From positions 32,001 to 96,000 of IMG/VR virus record IMGVR_UViG_3300042896_000657: a stretch of DNA of 64,000 bases; one strand, written 5' to 3'. The translations under genes and the position numbers were made by a program. The stretch is from a virus. Shown here in pieces: positions 31,437 to 60,188 of the stretch. The notes under the pieces were generated by a model. The model was not told the DNA's origin. It was given only the letters and a program-made list of their open reading frames with translations, and ran no database searches. Position 1 is the stretch's first letter. Every line of letters starts with the position of its first letter.

Positions 31437-31507
31437 GGTTAGGTTGATCAAGGTGGTCGGTAAGTCTGCAAAACTTACTATAGTAGGTTCGATACCTATC
31501 CTAACCT
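31437..31507 (+). tRNA. tRNA-Cys(GCA)
   Basis: Acceptor GGTTAGG/CCTAACC; TAAGT-ctGCAaa-ACTTA; U73. Confidence 0.9.
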
Positions 31508-31554
31508 CAGGTGGGTTTAATATTGTTCCCCGTGCGAAAAAAACAATATAAATT

Positions 31555-31627
31555 GGTACTTAAGCTAACTAGGTAGAAGCGATAGGTTGAAGACCTATAG
31601 GATAAGGTTCGATACCTTAAAGTACCA
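31555..31627 (+). tRNA. tRNA-Phe(GAA)
   Basis: GGTACTT/AAGTACC; ATAGG-ttGAAga-CCTAT. Confidence 0.9.
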
Positions 31628-31674
31628 CATGAAAAAACAATTTGAGATGCTTTAGGTTAATTAACCTAATCATC

Positions 31675-31851
31675 ATGAAAAAGCTAAAAAGAGCAGAAAC
31701 AAACAAAGAATACAATCATGCATTAAAAAATTATAAATGTTATTGTATGATATGTAATAAAAGGGCAGGAATATATAATGCATATTGTGGTCCAAAGAGT
31801 GAAAAGAAAAATAAAAACTGGAAACAGTATAGAAAAACAAAATGGAAATGA
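31675..31851 (+). CDS. Small basic Cys-containing protein inside the tRNA array
   Basis: MKKLKRAE..CYCMIC..C; the ATG at 31675 is a more plausible start than the TTG at 31642. Confidence 0.55.
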   Translation: MKKLKRAETNKEYNHALKNYKCYCMICNKRAGIYNAYCGPKSEKKNKNWKQYRKTKWK

Positions 31852-31898
31852 AAAAGTATAAACAGTAATACCCTCTAAGTAAACGAGGGAAATAAAAC

Positions 31899-31971
31899 GC
31901 CTTCGTAGCTTAATTGGTAGAGCAATATGCTTTTAACATATGTGGTGACAGTTCGATTCTGTCCGGGGGTA
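31899..31971 (+). tRNA. tRNA-Lys(TTT)
   Basis: ATATG-ctTTTaa-CATAT; normal D and T arms. Confidence 0.9.
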
Positions 31972-31976
31972 CAAAA

Positions 31977-32049
31977 GTAAGTGTAGCACAATTGGTAGTG
32001 CAGTAGTCTCCAAAACTAAAGGCTATAGGTTCGAGTCCTGTCACTTGCG
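31977..32049 (+). tRNA. tRNA-Trp(CCA)
   Basis: GTAAGTG/CACTTGC; ctCCAaa loop; G73. Confidence 0.9.
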
Positions 32050-32073
32050 CAAAAGATTAGTTCTTTGATTTAT

Positions 32074-32562
32074 GGGGCAGTCAGGAATTGACTGGGCAAA
32101 AAAAGTATAAAACAACAAGCAGTGCGATGAATGGTATAGCACTATAAAATGTACGTTCGAACAATAAATGACAACAAGTCAACTTTCTCTTTCGAAGATG
32201 CAATGTCTTTCGTAGGAGCAGATTTCGCAGTAGCTGCTTAATCTATTCAGGTGGTAACCAACCTAGGAACAGAATGATTACAAACAGAGCCACGTTCAGA
32301 ATGCTGCTCTAATACAAGTGAATTCGTCACAGTTGCTGGTAACAATGTTAAAATAGGAACCTGATGGTGGATTAGACCGCTATAAACGGTCGGCCCTTAC
32401 TGATCAATATAAGTTAGTAGAATAACGCTGCTGCTAGTATTCTTTAAATTACGTGGGAAGATGCAGCTCTCCCAATGTAGCTAACCATTATAGATCTAAG
32501 CTTGTAATAAATTGTTTTATGGCTGCTGCAACAGGACAAGGGTTCGAATCCCTTCTGCTCCA
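32074..32562 (+). ncRNA. ssrA: tmRNA
   Basis: 5' GGGGCAG..GGAATTGAC; 3' T arm plus CTGCTCCA with G3-U70; tag frame 32170-32241 reading (A)DNKSTFSFEDAMSFVGADFAVAA*. Confidence 0.92.
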
Positions 32563-32566
32563 CTAT

Positions 32567-32638
32567 AGTTCCTTAGTTCAATGGATAGAACACTTGACTA
32601 CGAATCATGAAATACAAGTTCGAGTCTTGTAGGAACTA
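32567..32638 (+). tRNA. tRNA-Arg(ACG)
   Basis: AGTTCCT/AGGAACT; ctACGaa loop. Confidence 0.88.
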
Positions 32639-32644
32639 CAAAAT

Positions 32645-32714
32645 GCCGTGGGTTGAGGTTTAACAACATTCTCTCATAAGGAATGTCAATTCGGTTCGAT
32701 ACCGAAACACGGTA
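32645..32714 (+). tRNA. tRNA with CAT anticodon (elongator Met or Ile2), atypical D arm
   Basis: CATTCT-ctCATaa-GGAATG; T arm TTCGG-TTCGATA-CCGAA. Confidence 0.7.
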
Positions 32715-32767
32715 CTATAAAATTGGATTATCGCGATAATAATCGTATATTGAATTATAATAAGAAA

Positions 32768-32840
32768 CGGGATGTGACAAAATTGGATACGCGCTCGCTT
32801 TGGAAGCGAGAGAATGCAGGTTCGACCCCTGCCATCCCGA
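32768..32840 (+). tRNA. tRNA-Pro(TGG)
   Basis: CGGGATG/CATCCCG; CTCGC-ttTGGaa-GCGAG. Confidence 0.88.
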
Positions 32841-32892
32841 CAAAAGTATTGTGAAGTACTATAAATTGATCTTTGACATCTAGGCTAAATTT

Positions 32893-32964
32893 ACCTCCAT
32901 AGTTTAATTGGAAGAATAAGGCCCTTCTAAGGCTTTGGTAGTGGTTCAAATCCACTTGGAGGTT
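32893..32964 (+). tRNA. tRNA-Arg(TCT)
   Basis: ACCTCCA/TGGAGGT; AGGCC-ctTCTaa-GGCTT. Confidence 0.88.
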
Positions 32965-32972
32965 CATAAAAT

Positions 32973-33045
32973 GGGCTGTTGGTATAGATGGCTAACACGG
33001 TAGATTTGCATTCTACAGTCCCCGGTTCGAAGCCGGGACGGTCCA
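32973..33045 (+). tRNA. tRNA-Ala(TGC)
   Basis: G3-U70 pair; GTAGA-ttTGCat-TCTAC. Confidence 0.9.
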
Positions 33046-33051
33046 CAATAT

Positions 33052-33123
33052 AGTTCCTTAGCTCAATGGAAGAGCAATGTCTTTACATGGCAAAGGTTAC
33101 AAGTTCGAATCTTGTAGGAACTA
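33052..33123 (+). tRNA. tRNA-Val(TAC)
   Basis: AGTTCCT/AGGAACT; ttTACat loop. Confidence 0.88.
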
Positions 33124-33178
33124 CCCACAGGAGGTATTTTCTCTACTTTGTCCTGCGTCCCAATCAAAGTAGTAATTT

Positions 33179-33250
33179 GCAGGTATAGCACAACGGTTAG
33201 TGCTCTGGTCTTCCAAACCGGAGATCTCGGTTCGAATCCGAGTATCTGCT
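33179..33250 (+). tRNA. tRNA-Gly(TCC)
   Basis: CTGGT-ctTCCaa-ACCGG; U73. Confidence 0.9.
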
Positions 33251-33259
33251 CAATAATAT

Positions 33260-33331
33260 TGACCTATGGTGTAATGGTTAGCACAACTGGTTTTGAGCCA
33301 GTTTGTTTAGGTTCGAATCCTAATAGGTCAT
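33260..33331 (+). tRNA. tRNA-Gln(TTG)
   Basis: TGACCTA/TAGGTCA; ACTGG-ttTTGag-CCAGT. Confidence 0.9.
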
Positions 33332-33415
33332 CAAAGATGAATAGATTACACAAGGTGTTAGTAGCTAGCTAAAGAGTCTCATTAGGTACACAAGTCCTAA
33401 ATTCATCTTTAAATT

Positions 33416-33503
33416 GGAAGATCCCAGTTGACTGAGGTACACGCTCTTGAAAAGCGCTAGGGGTCTGTGAGGGCCTGTAAGAGTTGGACTCTCTTATCTT
33501 CCG
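33416..33503 (+). tRNA. tRNA-Ser(TGA), atypical D/T loops
   Basis: GGAAGAT/ATCTTCC; ctTGAaa loop; long variable arm; G73. Confidence 0.75.
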
Positions 33504-33540
33504 CATTCGATGTGTTTGCCGAGCTAGATCGGCTTTATAT

Positions 33541-33615
33541 GGTGTTTATAGTGTTAATGGTTAAGCACGTCAGTTTGTGATTCTGATAGTTTGAGTTCGA
33601 ATCTCAATAAACACC
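33541..33615 (+). tRNA. tRNA-His(GTG)
   Basis: G-1/C73; ttGTGat loop. Confidence 0.9.
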
Positions 33616-33671
33616 CTCCTCCAATCCTGTGTCGGCTCGAGCAGGTGAAAGTTGAGGTATCGGGCCCTATT

Positions 33672-33757
33672 GGAAAGTAAAGCAGCCAGGGTTGCTGTCA
33701 CCGCCTGCTAAGCGAGTGGTACTTTAACGGTATGAATTTCGAGTATTCTACTTTCCG
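33672..33757 (+). tRNA. tRNA-Ser(GCT), atypical
   Basis: GGAAAGT/ACTTTCC; ctGCTaa loop; variable arm; G73. Confidence 0.75.
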
Positions 33758-33768
33758 CTGTATAATAT

Positions 33769-33849
33769 ATTGGAGTACCAGTGGAATCTTATACATTCTA
33801 TATCTGTAGTGGTATGTTGAAAACATGGGTTCGAATCCCATCTCCAATA
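33769..33849 (+). tRNA. Non-canonical tRNA-Ile(TAT)-like, no D arm before the anticodon arm
   Basis: ATTGGAG/CTCCAAT plus A73; GGAAT-ctTATac-ATTCT begins only 7 nt after the acceptor; T arm ATGGG-TTCGAAT-CCCAT. Confidence 0.6.
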
Positions 33850-33855
33850 CTATAT

Positions 33856-33933
33856 TGTGACGTATCCACCCTGTCCGATACACAGGAGTAAGGTAATTGG
33901 TTGAAAATATCGGTTCAAGTCCGATCGTCACAA
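33856..33933 (+). tRNA. Non-canonical tRNA-Ile(GAT)-like, no D arm before the anticodon arm
   Basis: TGTGACG/CGTCACA plus A73; CCTGT-ccGATac-ACAGG begins 7 nt after the acceptor; T arm ATCGG-TTCAAGT-CCGAT. Confidence 0.65.
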
Positions 33934-33943
33934 CTTTAAAAAT

Positions 33944-34015
33944 GGTCTATTGGTGAAGTGGCTATCATATTACCTTGTCACGGTAGAGTAGACGGATCGT
34001 AACCGTCATAGACCG
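33944..34015 (+). tRNA. tRNA-Asp(GTC)
   Basis: GGTCTAT/ATAGACC; ttGTCac loop; G73. Confidence 0.88.
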
Positions 34016-34025
34016 CTTAAAATAA

Positions 34026-34097
34026 GTTGAGGTAGCTCAGAGGCAGAGCAGGGTCCTGTTAAGACTCATGTCGAGATATCGTAATTCTCTCTCAACG
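34026..34097 (+). tRNA. tRNA-Asn(GTT)
   Basis: GGGTC-ctGTTaa-GACTC; G73. Confidence 0.88.
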
Positions 34098-34147
34098 CAA
34101 ATTAAATGTGTATGTCACAGCTAGTGTTCGTACATTGATAATAAGAT

Positions 34148-34281
34148 AGTCAGGTGGCGGAATTGGTAAACGCAAAAGCCAACTCGTAGTTGGAAGCGAG
34201 TTTAAATAAGACAGTCCGAAGTTCGTGGGTGGCATTAGCCTCTGGCACTTTGGCTTACAGGTTCGAATCCTGTCCTGACTA
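34148..34281 (+). ncRNA. tRNA-like scaffold RNA, copy 1
   Basis: AGTCAGGTGGCGGAATTGGTAAACGC, unique core, ACAGGTTCGAATCCTGTCCTGACTA. Confidence 0.75.
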
Positions 34282-34307
34282 CAAAAAATAAATAAAAATT
34301 TAAGATT

Positions 34308-34490
34308 ATGGATTGGATAGAAATTAAAAATCAAAAACCAAAAGATGATAGTTGGGTTTTGATAAAATCTTCTCTAAAGAACGTACCGAAATATGAGGTT
34401 TGTCATTATGGAAATAATGAGTGGTATATGCCTTGTTATGATGATGCATGTCAAGAGAAGGATATTATTAAATGGTCGTACATTGAATAA
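34308..34490 (+). CDS. DUF551-like small protein between two scaffold copies
   Basis: WIEIKNQKP..IIKWSYI. Confidence 0.6.
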   Translation: MDWIEIKNQKPKDDSWVLIKSSLKNVPKYEVCHYGNNEWYMPCYDDACQEKDIIKWSYIE

Positions 34491-34496
34491 TAATAC

Positions 34497-34645
34497 AGTC
34501 AGGTGGCGGAATGAAGGCACAAAGAGTAATAGTATGTGCTGGATATGGTAGACGCTAAGAAAGAAATTAACTTCGTATCTAAGTGGAAACACATGGTGGT
34601 ACACTAAAGCATAATTTCATGCGGGTTCGATTCCTGTCCTGACTA
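34497..34645 (+). ncRNA. tRNA-like scaffold RNA, copy 2 (extra hairpin inserted in the D loop)
   Basis: Same ends as copy 1; GCACA..TGTGC insert within the D loop. Confidence 0.7.
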
Positions 34646-34658
34646 CAAGATAATATAT

Positions 34659-34730
34659 TGCGGGGTAGAGCAGAGGTAGCTCGGAAGGCTCATAACCTTT
34701 AGGTCACAGGTTCGAATCCTGTCCCTGCTA
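34659..34730 (+). tRNA. Initiator-type tRNA-Met(CAT)
   Basis: TGCGGGGTAGAGCAG; unpaired U1/U72; GAAGG-ctCATaa-CCTTT. Confidence 0.88.
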
Positions 34731-34991
34731 CAAATCATAGGATTAATTACCCTATGACTGTCAGGTTCGAAACTGACGATTGATTATGGTGTATAGGTGC
34801 ACAGGATGATAAAGTAACAACTGGTAAGTAAGCCGGAAGAGAAATTGACACCAGGAATATGGTTCGAATCCATTTAAATCAACAAAAGTAGAAGTAAGTA
34901 TTGAGCAGGCACGCCGTAAAATAGATTCACAACTATCAGAGCTGTTTACTTTCAATATGTGAAAATGTGGGCATATTGACTACTTTTAATT

Positions 34992-35075
34992 GGGAGTATC
35001 GCACAGCTGGAAAAGGCGCAGCACTGTAAATGCTGTAAGTCGCATGACTTGGAGGTTCGAGTCCTTTTGCTCCCA
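34992..35075 (+). tRNA. tRNA-Tyr(GTA)
   Basis: CAGCA-ctGTAaa-TGCTG; variable arm AAGTC/GACTT. Confidence 0.9.
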
Positions 35076-35085
35076 CTAATATAAT

Positions 35086-35157
35086 GCTCCTGTCGTCTAA
35101 TGGTTAGGATATCTCACTTTCTATGAGATGATTTCGGTTCGAATCCGTGCGGGAGTA
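35086..35157 (+). tRNA. tRNA-Glu(TTC)
   Basis: TCTCA-ctTTCta-TGAGA. Confidence 0.88.
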
Positions 35158-35250
35158 CAAAAGTAATTAGGTGGGCGTAATGAGGAACGGTTTCCAAGTC
35201 CAATAGAATGGTTGCTTATCCTGTTCGAGTCAGGCCCTAATTACTTACTT

Positions 35251-35322
35251 GCTCTCAAAGCATTGCAGGCGATGCACCTGACTTGTAATCAGGATAAATC
35301 GGTTCGATTCCGGTTGAGAGCT
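35251..35322 (+). tRNA. tRNA-Thr(TGT)
   Basis: GCTCTCA/TGAGAGC; CCTGA-ctTGTaa-TCAGG. Confidence 0.9.
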
Positions 35323-35404
35323 CAAAAAAGGTAAAAGAAATTTGGCCTAGCAAAACAACGTTTGTATATTGATAATATAGAAACAAATACGTTCTTTGAA
35401 AATA

Positions 35405-36283
35405 TTGTTATCCATTTAAGTTACATTCGACGCGAAACAGTCCGGCTGCCGATAAGATTGTAGGTTGATAAATAACACTCGGCGGCCTATAGTCGTTAAA
35501 TAAACCGTGAAAGCGGTATAAAGTGAATTAGTTTGACTGAACTAGTTTGCGCATCGTGAGATGTTAAGTAGGCAAGCAGGATATCATTTATCCTTTAGTA
35601 CCGAGGGTGACACTGTAGGGAAAGTGGATAGATGATTAGGCGATGTGGGTCGTCTGATTGAGCTCGGAAGAGCAATAAGAATAACCTGTAGAATATATGC
35701 AAGAAATATACCTCCAAGTATGTAATTGCGTTATTCAATATAAGAGAAATCTTAAAATCGAAAGGTAAGATGATGTACAGGTGGTGCTGTTATTGTCCTC
35801 AAAATTAATCTACCAAGGTTTTTATTGAGAAGATTTCTTAAAGTATGGAGGTAGGGATACTTCAGAGAGTAGTCGAGTATTTTGTTGTTCAAAAGATAAC
35901 AAAGCTTAGGGTAAGCCACTACTTTCATAATCCATAAGTCTAAACTAAATTTGCTACTATGATGCAATATCTAAAATCAAATTAAGCTTAAGCGCTTACC
36001 AGCTACGGACGAAAGATGCTTACATAGTACTGGGTTGTCCAGTGCCATTTAAGACCGCAAGTCAAGAATGATTCTTTTGAAAGACTTATAGTACCGCAAG
36101 TACGAATCAGGCTCGCAAGCTTGAATAGGGGTGAGTAGGAGGAGAGTAGTCCAATACAAGTAGCTCTAAGAGTGGTTCACTTAAATAACCAGCATTGTCA
36201 GAGTAGGGATCAAAAGTTCCTGGATAAGAGAAGAATAAATAATGTCTCAAAAGCTTTGACGTCAAGACTGTAATCTCAGGTCT
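35405..36283 (+). ncRNA. Large structured ncRNA, probably GOLLD-class
   Basis: About 880 nt with no credible ORF; GC-enriched; many GNRA-capped hairpins (GCAA, GAAA); own promoter motif and boxA; embedded among phage tRNAs; ends approximate. Confidence 0.6.
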
Positions 36284-36289
36284 TTTTAT

Positions 36290-36369
36290 GCCTCGGTGGT
36301 GGAATTGGTAGTCACGCTGGCTTTAAGCGTCAGTCCGAAAGGGTGAGGGTTCGAGTCCCTCCTGGGGTA
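36290..36369 (+). tRNA. tRNA-Leu(TAA)
   Basis: CTGGC-ttTAAgc-GTCAG; short variable hairpin CC-GAAA-GG. Confidence 0.88.
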
Positions 36370-36376
36370 CTAATAT

Positions 36377-36521
36377 TGTAGTGTGATGAAACTGGCAGAC
36401 ATTGCCCTCCTGTCTCGGGGGTGAGGATCAACTGATAAACGTAGGATAGATGGGTTGACCACAAGCTAGCAATGTCCTACAGCTAAAGTCCTCGTGAGTG
36501 GTTCGAATCCCTCCACTACAG
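36377..36521 (+). tRNA. tRNA-Asp(GTC)-like with a ~70-nt structured variable-arm insertion
   Basis: TGTAGTG/CACTACA plus G73; CCCTC-ctGTCtc-GGGGG; GAGGAT..GTCCTC stem enclosing GTAGGAT..GTCCTAC. Confidence 0.65.
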
Positions 36522-36529
36522 CAAAATAT

Positions 36530-36632
36530 AGTCAGGTGGCGTAATGGTAACGTGTCACCCTCCAGGTTGAGATAACAGCTAATGGCACTCTGTATGATAA
36601 AGAAGATACAGGTTCGAATCCTGTCCTGACTA
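36530..36632 (+). ncRNA. tRNA-like scaffold RNA, copy 3
   Basis: AGTCAGGTGGCGTAATGGTAACG..ACAGGTTCGAATCCTGTCCTGACTA. Confidence 0.75.
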
Positions 36633-36653
36633 CAATTGATTAATGGAAACTTT

Positions 36654-36727
36654 ACCTGGGTGGCGGAACTGGCAGACGCAGCGGCCTTAGAAGTCGTAAG
36701 GTGAGGGTTCGAATCCCTCTCTGGGTA
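36654..36727 (+). tRNA. tRNA-Leu(TAG), lacking the long variable arm
   Basis: GCGGC-ctTAGaa-GTCGT; variable region only AAGGT. Confidence 0.8.
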
Positions 36728-36746
36728 CTATATTAAATTTAATGTT

Positions 36747-44745: not shown

Positions 44746-44852
44746 AGTCAGGTGGCGGAATGGTAGACGCTAGAAGTGAATAGATAAGTAAGTGTATTGT
44801 CGCTTAAACAACTTTGCTACTTATCATACAGGTTCGAATCCTGTCCTGACCA
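44746..44852 (+). ncRNA. tRNA-like scaffold RNA, copy 4
   Basis: Conserved ends; core closed by GATAAGTA/TACTTATC. Confidence 0.75.
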
Positions 44853-44966: not shown

Positions 44967-45089
44967 AGTCAGGTGGCGGAATGGTAGACGCTAATGAATT
45001 GTCCTGAGATGAGACGATGCCTAACACCAGCAGAGACTTAATGGTGTCCGAGAAGATTAGGTGTACAGGTTCGAATCCTGTCCTGACTA
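44967..45089 (+). ncRNA. tRNA-like scaffold RNA, copy 5
   Basis: Conserved ends; core stems GCCTAA/TTAGGT and ACACCA/TGGTGT. Confidence 0.75.
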
Positions 45090-45222: not shown

Positions 45223-45380
45223 AGTCAGGTGGCGAAATTGGTAGACGCCTAATAAACTAACAAGTGAGGTAATTAGCACTTGGTTACGATGGGGAAAAAT
45301 TCAAAGTAATGTTTTTTAGAAAAGTGAAAAGTAAGAAGTACAATGAAAATCATTTACAGGTTCGAATCCTGTTCTGACTA
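45223..45380 (+). ncRNA. tRNA-like scaffold RNA, copy 6
   Basis: Conserved ends; longest core; CAAGTG/CACTTG stem. Confidence 0.75.
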
Positions 45381-59690: not shown

Positions 59691-59831
59691 AGTCAGGTGG
59701 TGAAATTGGTAGACACGCTAATGTAGGCATCTTTAAGATGGACGATTGTACTCCGCAGGTTCACGTTAGTTTATTCTAAAGAGATATGAGTACACTTAAT
59801 AGAATTACAGGTTCGAATCCTGTCCTGACTA
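59691..59831 (+). ncRNA. tRNA-like scaffold RNA, copy 7
   Basis: AGTCAGGTGGTGAAATTGGTAGACAC (compensatory D-stem change GTG/CAC)..ACAGGTTCGAATCCTGTCCTGACTA. Confidence 0.75.
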
Positions 59832-59926: not shown

Positions 59927-60037
59927 AGTCAGGTGGCGCAATTGGTAGCCAAAAAGGGATGTTGAAGGTAGTAGTAATACTCCGCCTCGAACAAGTGTAG
60001 GCGACTTTTACAGGTTCGAGTCCTGTCCTGACTACCA
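59927..60037 (+). ncRNA. tRNA-like scaffold RNA, copy 8 (encoded CCA end)
   Basis: Conserved ends, finishing CCTGACT-A-CCA. Confidence 0.75.
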
Positions 60038-60082: not shown

Positions 60083-60188
60083 AGTCAGGTGGCGGAATGG
60101 TAGACGCTATCTAAAAGATCATATGAAAGGGTGATATAAGACTGAAACGAATAAACCCAATCTACAGGTTCGAGTCCTGTCCTGACTA
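60083..60188 (+). ncRNA. tRNA-like scaffold RNA, copy 9
   Basis: Conserved ends; unique core. Confidence 0.75.

Follow-up and report, generated by a model that had tools for sequence, protein, structure and literature searches.

Two neighbouring tRNA-Ile genes in a phage tRNA array are probable members of a phage-borne family with a non-cloverleaf secondary structure

The window analyzed here is a stretch of 64,000 nucleotides (nt) from the IMG/VR virus record IMGVR_UViG_3300042896_000657 (positions 32,001 to 96,000). It carries two neighbouring transfer RNA (tRNA) genes with isoleucine anticodons on the + strand, tRNA-Ile(UAU) (gene 1, 33769-33849, 81 nt) and tRNA-Ile(GAU) (gene 2, 33856-33933, 78 nt), which share an unusual, rewired layout. 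Judged from sequence comparison, both are probably working phage Ile tRNAs that belong to a phage-borne family with a non-cloverleaf secondary structure. A first-pass annotation of this DNA had proposed a functional alternative tRNA fold for the pair, and this proposal now appears strongly supported by the homologues, the covariation, the conserved core, the identity marks and the complementarity to the surrounding tRNA array. The source record is 114 kb long and about 67% complete, and the GC content of the window is 29%. Two alignments of family members were used, A1 with 38 longer-type members and A2 with 14 shorter-type members, and a covariance model, R1, was built from A1.

The acceptor stem of gene 1 (33769-33775 with 33842-33848) showed 7/7 Watson-Crick pairs, and A73 is at 33849. 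It is followed by the connector U8-A9-C (33776-33778), in which C 33778 pairs with G 33816, the first base of GUUGAAAA. The next three bases, CAG 33779-33781, pair with CUG 33804-33806, and this new helix closes around the anticodon arm (33783-33799). The anticodon arm has a stem of 5 base pairs (bp) and the loop CUUAUAC, with the anticodon UAU at 33790-33792; U33 and A37 are both present, and U 33782 with A 33800 could form a sixth stem pair. The D-loop look-alike (33807-33815) reads U, A14, G15, U, G18, G19, UAU and bulges from the 3' strand of the long helix. GUUGAAAA and a C occupy 33816-33824. The start of the motif pairs with the 5' connector, its A run forms the junction to the T stem, and C 33824 is the Y48-like partner of G15. 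The T arm (33825-33841) has a 5-bp stem (33825-33829 with 33837-33841) and the loop UUCGAAU.

Gene 2 represents a shorter subtype in which GG is directly followed by UUGAAAA, and it has 13 close relatives in A2. Its acceptor stem (33856-33862 with 33926-33932) is paired at 7/7 positions, and A73 is at 33933. In the 5' linker UAUCCAC (33863-33869), CC 33866-33867 pairs with GG 33892-33893. The helix is extended by AC 33868-33869 with GU 33888-33889, leaving A 33887 bulged. The anticodon arm (33870-33886) has the loop CCGAUAC with the anticodon GAU at 33877-33879 and A37, and its stem was 100% paired in A2. The D-loop look-alike, UUGAAAA and a final U lie at 33894-33908, with the order U, A14, A15, UU, G18, G19, and the final U partners A15. 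The T arm (33909-33925) has 5 bp and the loop UUCAAGU. The motif is present in gene 2, though the pairing of the connector with its start is ambiguous.

Direct reading of the sequence confirmed the perfect 7-bp acceptors, A73 and 5-bp T arms that the first-pass annotation had described in both genes. As it had also stated, the anticodon hairpins (UAU and GAU) start 7 nt past the acceptor; no D hairpin is present in this short interval in either gene. The segment between anticodon stem and T stem is 25 nt in gene 1 and 22 nt in gene 2, within the 22-25 nt given earlier, and it does carry the D-loop-like A-R-N(N)-G-G and the shared GUUGAAAA. The suggested pairing of the 5' linker with a downstream GGTA fared less well. 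In gene 1 (TACC/GGTA), the GG concerned is the conserved G18G19, and the covarying partner strand is CUG 33804-33806. In gene 2 (TATC/GGTA), the place was roughly right and the register was off by one. The register A9-U10-C11 with GGU was mismatched in 6/14 relatives and was rejected; relatives with AUC/GAU and ACG/CGU set the correct register one base further, at the CC/GG pairing given above. The AC/GU extension of gene 2 also covaries in A2 (AU 6, GU 3, CG 1 at the first pair; CG 6, GC 5 at the second).

Conventional tRNA finders were expected to miss both genes, and they largely did. Gene 1 was not called by ARAGORN in default, intron or mitochondrial mode, and gene 2 was found neither by ARAGORN in these modes nor by Rfam at E-values up to 10. 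Rfam detected gene 1 with the tRNA model RF00005 at 33 bits (gathering cut-off 29). In that alignment the D arm is deleted (4 nt against 15 model positions), and 22 nt are inserted before the T arm.

A search of IMG/VR with a pattern of GUUGAAAA plus a T arm gave more than 117 loci among the matches listed, and dozens of these were tRNAs of identical layout. With a member cut-off of 41 bits or more, R1 gave 128 distinct members across 99 loci, nearly all in phage contigs and 7 in contigs from a scan of metagenome-assembled genomes. Members are 77-82 nt long, or up to about 90 nt with an insert. The first-pass annotation had advised collecting homologues and checking their covariation; the 128 relatives share the layout, and their helices covary. 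Gene 1 scored 84.2 bits and gene 2 scored 61.3 bits against R1, compared with at most 24 bits for canonical tRNAs in the window and at most 35 bits for canonical tRNAs overall. Because the R1 E-values in the window are 9e-25 and 3e-17, respectively, chance is excluded for both genes. Ile anticodons were present in 84 members (UAU 48, GAU 36) and Arg anticodons in 40 (UCU 18, UCG 13, ACG 7, CCG 1, CCU 1). The remaining anticodons were CAU (3) and UGU (1).

The proposed structure gave standard pairs in 98.1% of the cells of A1, compared with 60% after shuffling, and the covariation score was 0.98 against 0.22. When the partners were slid by 1-3 columns, pairing fell to 34-47%. The 141 distinct rows of the R1 alignment gave the same result as A1. 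Compensatory changes were observed in every helix, including the new ones, and at all 7 pairs of the acceptor stem across the family. The new helix, formed by A1 columns 12-14 with 37-40, was 98% paired, and its pair types varied (GC 22, AU 14, CG 2 and GC 20, AU 11, UA 4, UG 1). RNAalifold, run with no structure supplied, returned the same four helices and no D hairpin. The top-ranked pairs by mutual information with average product correction were all proposed pairs. Minimum free energy folds of the single sequences were uninformative (z-scores −0.9 and −1.5).

Two further contacts were detected outside the main helices. In the first, the connector base that follows U8-A9 pairs with the nucleotide just 5' of UUGAAAA; where the connector has two bases, a second pair includes the first U of the motif. 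For the Arg-type connector, both pairs were standard in 33/34 members (AC/GU, GC/GC, GU/AC, UC/GA, AU/AU), and for the longer Ile-type connector 43/45 were standard (C:G 37, G:C 2, U:A 2, A:U 1, U:G 1); in each case 0/2000 shuffles equalled the observed value. The second contact resembles the R15:Y48 pair, a role assigned because the purine that follows the conserved U-A covaries, as in normal tRNAs, with the base immediately 5' of the T stem. It conformed in 123 of the 128 members (G:C 62, A:U 61, other 5), and A2 showed zero exceptions (A:U 9, G:C 5). Two other local pairings were rejected. In a closed GUU-GAA-AAC mini-hairpin, the base before UUGAAAA would have an inner partner; it covaries with the connector, and the final C/U covaries with R15. 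Pairing of the G of the conserved GUA with the final C/U showed no covariation, since that G is invariant.

Several features point to function as tRNAs. U8 and A9 are invariant in the family, GUA and GG are nearly so, and the T loops are canonical. U33 is present in 127/128 members, the purine at position 37 is kept, and the triplets are limited to Ile, Arg, CAU and UGU. A73 was found in 84/84 members with an Ile anticodon. A20, the A directly after GG (GGA), was found in 40/40 members with an Arg anticodon, and the Ile members mostly have U or G there. A20 is the main determinant of Escherichia coli arginyl-tRNA synthetase (ArgRS). The identity marks thus track the anticodon, and one of them lies inside the relocated D-loop; we therefore argue that this loop sits where the synthetase expects it.

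The members also fill gaps in the surrounding tRNA sets. In arrays with at least 10 canonical tRNAs, 23/28 rewired members had no canonical tRNA of the same anticodon in the locus. One locus (L097) has 24 canonical tRNAs for 19 amino acids, and none of them is Ile. In arrays with a rewired Arg member, the canonical Arg tRNAs have other anticodons. The window follows this pattern. Its tRNA array (31437-36728, + strand), which also contains a transfer-messenger RNA (tmRNA) and a GOLLD RNA, was said by the first-pass annotation to have no canonical Ile tRNA; ARAGORN and Rfam indeed found no other Ile tRNA in the window, in a record that is about 67% complete. Both rewired genes lie 6-10 nt from their neighbours, as the other tRNAs of the array do. 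In the open reading frames of the window Ile accounts for 86 per 1000 codons and AUA for 34 per 1000, and the remaining array tRNAs Arg-UCU, Arg-ACG, Leu-UAA and Leu-UAG fit the codon use as well.

Some observations weigh against the reading of both genes as working tRNAs of a common fold. The missing third of the record could hold a canonical Ile tRNA. In 5/28 cases the array did contain a canonical tRNA with the same anticodon, so that the rewired copy need not be indispensable everywhere. The loci were pulled by sequence patterns, so that the motif conservation of the first set is partly by construction. This bias is offset by a second IMG/VR scan with a pattern of the 5' half that omitted the motif, and by extra members in the same arrays. 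Because the motif-free pattern also recovered further members, conservation of the motif is more than ascertainment; most of these members keep (G)UUGAAAA-C. One base is changed in some of them, a small hairpin interrupts the motif in several, and a third subtype replaces it by a short linker of the UCACA type. As for gene 2 itself, its C33 is the sole exception to U33 among the 128 members, and its enclosing helix has just two clean pairs. The gene 2 copy may be impaired.

The comparison of family members supports the following architecture. The acceptor stem and T arm are canonical, and U8-A9 leads into a long helix. The connector and the next three bases form the 5' strand of this helix, which continues into the anticodon stem. 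Its 3' strand is broken by a bulge with the D-loop signature A14, R15, G18G19 and resumes at the G (or GU) that opens GUUGAAAA, with the A run and final pyrimidine reaching the T stem. With the D-loop as a bulge in a long helix, the four-way cloverleaf junction therefore becomes a three-way junction of acceptor, D-like plus anticodon helix, and T arm. Extrapolating from this secondary structure and the conserved nucleotides to three dimensions, the GG of the bulge would dock on the T loop, so that the L shape and its elbow would be kept. The stack from anticodon to elbow would be of near normal length, with about 10 layers counted by eye in each window gene and 5 + 1 + 4 in a normal tRNA. The UAU gene would read AUA, and the GAU gene would read AUU and AUC.

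The transcripts would presumably be cut from the array by host RNase P and 3' processing. CCA is encoded in neither rewired gene, and no CCA-adding enzyme, isoleucyl-tRNA synthetase (IleRS) or ArgRS was found in the record, of which about 67% is present; host enzymes would therefore be needed. A host enzyme may add CCA, and the host IleRS may charge the tRNAs through the anticodon and A73.

Our best guess for the purpose of the fold is that loss of the D hairpin deprives a host or rival factor of a handle on the tRNA, with everything required for translation retained. It is about equally likely that a workable oddity was simply inherited. Common descent of the Ile and Arg groups is favoured because both share GUUGAAAA. 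The restriction to Ile and Arg would be explained equally well by an amino-acid-specific pressure or by one ancestor followed by anticodon switching, and a third possibility is that Ile and Arg are the rare-codon tRNAs that phages exchange most.

A more specific alternative is that the fold was selected to escape a factor for which the D arm or core of tRNA-Ile and tRNA-Arg is the site of recognition or cleavage. Candidates for such a factor would be a defence tRNase of the host, a toxin made by a rival element, or a nuclease that the phage itself uses for host shutoff. This would fit the limit of the fold to Ile and Arg (plus three CAU and one UGU) among the 128 members, the almost wholly phage- or element-borne family, and the loss of the D hairpin with every translation element retained. 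There are also precedents: phage tRNAs reportedly rescue infection from the tRNA-cutting defence PARIS, and Arg-specific tRNases such as colicin D exist. However, the analysis linked no nuclease, toxin or defence gene to the family, and known anticodon nucleases mostly read the anticodon loop, which is unchanged. Common descent with anticodon switching would account for the Ile/Arg limit just as well, and so would the fact that rare-codon tRNAs of these two kinds are the ones phages usually carry. Selection for escape is a less likely possibility. A wider proposal is that a three-way-junction tRNA is in routine use by bacterial ribosomes, IleRS, ArgRS, EF-Tu, RNase P and the CCA enzyme. On this view the design would have spread in phages of at least Bacteroidota and Actinomycetota hosts because it is blind to a host defence or modification directed at the D arm, and it would decode the Ile and Arg codons for which AT-rich phages have the greatest need. 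As a whole, this proposal is doubtful.

The genes could also be non-decoding tRNA mimics that act as primers, or as decoys or sponges for a synthetase, nuclease or modification enzyme. Phages do carry tRNA-like RNAs with no anticodon, the window has at least 8 copies of a tRNA-like repeat with hypervariable inserts, and an anticodon-arm-less version of the family occurs in gut phage contigs. Against this, the anticodon loops of the family are strictly tRNA-like in U33, the purine at 37 and the restricted set of triplets, the identity marks follow the anticodon (A73 with Ile and A20 with Arg), and the members fill empty anticodon slots of near-complete arrays. A role as mimics is thus quite improbable, and decoding remains the preferred reading.

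Decay into pseudogenes that have lost the D arm is very improbable. It would account for the failure of ARAGORN on both genes, for the Rfam score of gene 1 barely above threshold with gene 2 missed, and for C33 in gene 2. However, compensatory changes preserve the layout across 128 distinct sequences of very diverse phage origin, both genes have perfect acceptor and T stems, and the array has no canonical substitute. An ordinary cloverleaf with a different anticodon, which the first-pass annotation had named as a possible refutation and which ARAGORN at a 90% threshold offers for gene 1 as tRNA-Gln(CUG) with a one-pair D stem and a weak anticodon stem, is scarcely credible, since in the alignment of relatives this CUG is the 3' strand of the enclosing helix and changes to CCG, UCG, ACG or AUG together with matching changes in the partner strand, whereas the loops with UAU and GAU remain constant.

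The rewired genes can be compared with several known systems. They resemble canonical tRNA-Ile(GAU) and tRNA-Ile(UAU) (RF00005) in the 7-bp acceptor, A73, the TΨC-type T arm and the 7-nt anticodon loop with A37, and also in U8, A9, A14, R15, G18G19, the Y48-like base, the position in a phage array and the decoding role. They differ from canonical tRNAs in that the equivalent of the D stem is built from the connector and two downstream segments and encloses the anticodon arm. The D-loop motif has moved to the 3' side of that arm, and a conserved motif of 7-8 nt replaces the variable loop.

Metazoan mitochondria have D-arm-less tRNAs, such as tRNA-Ser(AGY) and the nematode tRNA-Ser(UCU) (PMC7609411). 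Like the rewired genes, these decode, lack a D hairpin, start the anticodon helix soon after the acceptor and are missed by standard finders. They are about 54-65 nt long and have lost the elbow contacts, whereas the rewired phage genes are 78-81 nt long and keep a canonical T loop and GG. Mitochondrial D-arm-less tRNAs depend on adapted mitochondrial factors; the rewired family is presumably served by the usual machinery of bacteria. Class II tRNAs (Leu, Ser, bacterial Tyr) similarly have 13-25 extra nt between the anticodon and T arms, and some rewired members add a small hairpin there. In class II tRNAs, however, the D arm is normal and the extra part forms a hairpin of its own; in the rewired genes the corresponding segment contains the D-loop motif and is paired to the connector. 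The tRNA-like domain of tmRNA is the nearest topological analogue, with an acceptor, a T arm, a D-loop analogue with no D stem and a long helix formed by distant segments. In tmRNA the D-loop analogue is on the 5' side, there is no anticodon, SmpB is needed and the charge is Ala. Allo-tRNAs and tRNA-Sec-like tRNAs, with 8/4 or 9/3 acceptor/T branches, are non-standard designs from metagenomes, in part from phages, with Ile(UAU) and Arg as prominent anticodons (PMC5389517). They stay cloverleaves with a D hairpin, whereas the rewired family has the standard 7/5 branch and a rewired core.

We found no description of the fold in the full-text literature searched, which included the 2020 review of non-canonical tRNAs (PMC7609411) and did not extend to subscription journals. 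Fremin et al. 2023 (PMC10690425) describe unnamed tRNA-like candidates in IMG/VR, one of which overlaps tRNA-Arg calls. The design appears to be undescribed, unless some of those candidates belong to it.

Outside animal mitochondria, a cloverleaf that includes a D hairpin is regarded as universal. If the reading as working tRNAs is true, the tRNA core can be built a second way, and the family offers a natural means of finding out which tRNA features are truly required by the ribosome, EF-Tu, RNase P, the CCA enzyme and two class I synthetases. Phage tRNA sets are under-counted because standard finders skip the rewired genes. Arrays that seem short of Ile or of one Arg isoacceptor may be complete, including those of cultured Streptomyces phages and crAss-like phages. 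If the fold protects against tRNA-directed defences, it would be a new principle of counter-defence, and it may also serve as an orthogonal tRNA scaffold.

Beyond IMG/VR, the shorter GAU type matched 37 Streptomyces phages in GenBank (Mildred21 and relatives), the cultured crAss-like Kehishuvirus 'tikkala' and two uncultured crAss-like records. None of these records has any annotation under the match. Huge uncultured phages, such as LR756502, matched as well. The rewired tRNA-Ile(GAU) of Mildred21 (NC_042008, about 73703-73779) scored 42 bits against R1 and is flanked by tRNA nucleotidyltransferase and FtsK-like genes. That of Kehishuvirus (OQ198717, about 95577-95653) scored 40 bits and sits in a 90-nt gap from tRNA-Trp to tRNA-Met. 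In both of these loci a canonical Ile-UAU is present, and the sole Ile-GAU is the rewired one. The family can be tested at the bench because cultured phages carry members. The first-pass remark that a UAU anticodon is rare in bacteria holds, but in phage arrays it is ordinary, with canonical Ile-UAU in several loci and in these two cultured phages. BLAST matches in Cronobacter phage GAP32 and Tunturiibacter phage Tunturi_5 covered only the T arm and lie outside the family.

In a collection of species-representative genomes the motif mostly matched ordinary tRNA-Glu and tRNA-Gly genes. Contigs of metagenome-assembled genomes (MAGs) had 7 rewired members in 6 loci, with 4 in Saprospiraceae MAGs, 2 in one further MAG and 1 on a Methanosarcinales MAG contig. 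One copy, on a 2.6-Mb contig, lies beside a long tRNA-Leu, tRNA fragments and a tail-sheath gene, amid ordinary host genes, and from its gene content the site looks like an integrated element. The remaining MAG copies are on short contigs.

A few unusual relatives were observed. The three rewired members with a CAU anticodon (L048:6052-6128, L006:11809-11885 and L286:5432-5507), two of which have A73, could be Met tRNAs with this fold or Ile2-type tRNAs that depend on lysidine. The member at L042:6333-6412 is Arg-like, with GGA after the D-loop motif, and has the loop CCUGUAA, which in the normal reading gives C33 and UGU (Thr). It may represent a recent anticodon change or a defective copy. 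The anticodon-arm-less short relative was found in L003, L005, L007 and more than 30 other IMG/VR loci, mostly from sample 3300045988, with variants in L033 and L049. It has an 8-bp acceptor stem, directly followed by a D-loop-like GG segment, GUUGAAAA, a T arm and A73, and it is near-identical across many gut-type phage contigs.

In the rest of the window, ARAGORN called 20 tRNAs for 18 amino acids, with neither Ile nor Ser among them. The first-pass annotation had credited the array with conventional tRNAs for all 19 other amino acids; conventional finders (ARAGORN or Rfam) cover just 18, and both Ser tRNAs are atypical. In the Ser-GCU gene (33672-33758, + strand) the anticodon stem contains a bulge and the T stem has 4 bp; ARAGORN called this gene only at an 80% threshold. 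The Ser-UGA gene (about 33414-33503, + strand) has an odd D region and the T loop UUGGACU and was recognized by eye only. Neither Ser gene gave an Rfam match at E-values up to 10. A tRNA-like gene with a CAU anticodon (32644-32715, + strand) was called only in the mitochondrial mode of ARAGORN. Its D region is unusual, and one additional base separates the T stem from the 3' strand of the acceptor. The gene could be a Met or Ile2-type tRNA or a relic.

The tmRNA of the array (32074-32565, + strand; Rfam RF00023, 64.5 bits) lies between tRNA-Trp and tRNA-Arg and was not reported by ARAGORN. A full-length GOLLD RNA (35865-36282, + strand; Rfam RF02032, 262 bits) is positioned directly upstream of tRNA-Leu(UAA).

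The tRNA-like repeat has at least 8 copies in the window, all on the + strand (34148-34281, 34497-34645, 36530-36632, 44746-44852, 44967-45089, 59691-59831, 59927-60034 and 60083-60188), and a ninth, at about 45223-45380, is less clear. Its 5' part consists of a near-identical 5' acceptor strand and a class-II-like D arm, and its 3' part consists of a T arm, the 3' acceptor strand and A73. A hypervariable insert of 40-85 nt replaces the anticodon and variable arms. The copies scored 28-49 bits with the Rfam tRNA model, and a similar element was observed in another phage contig (L012).

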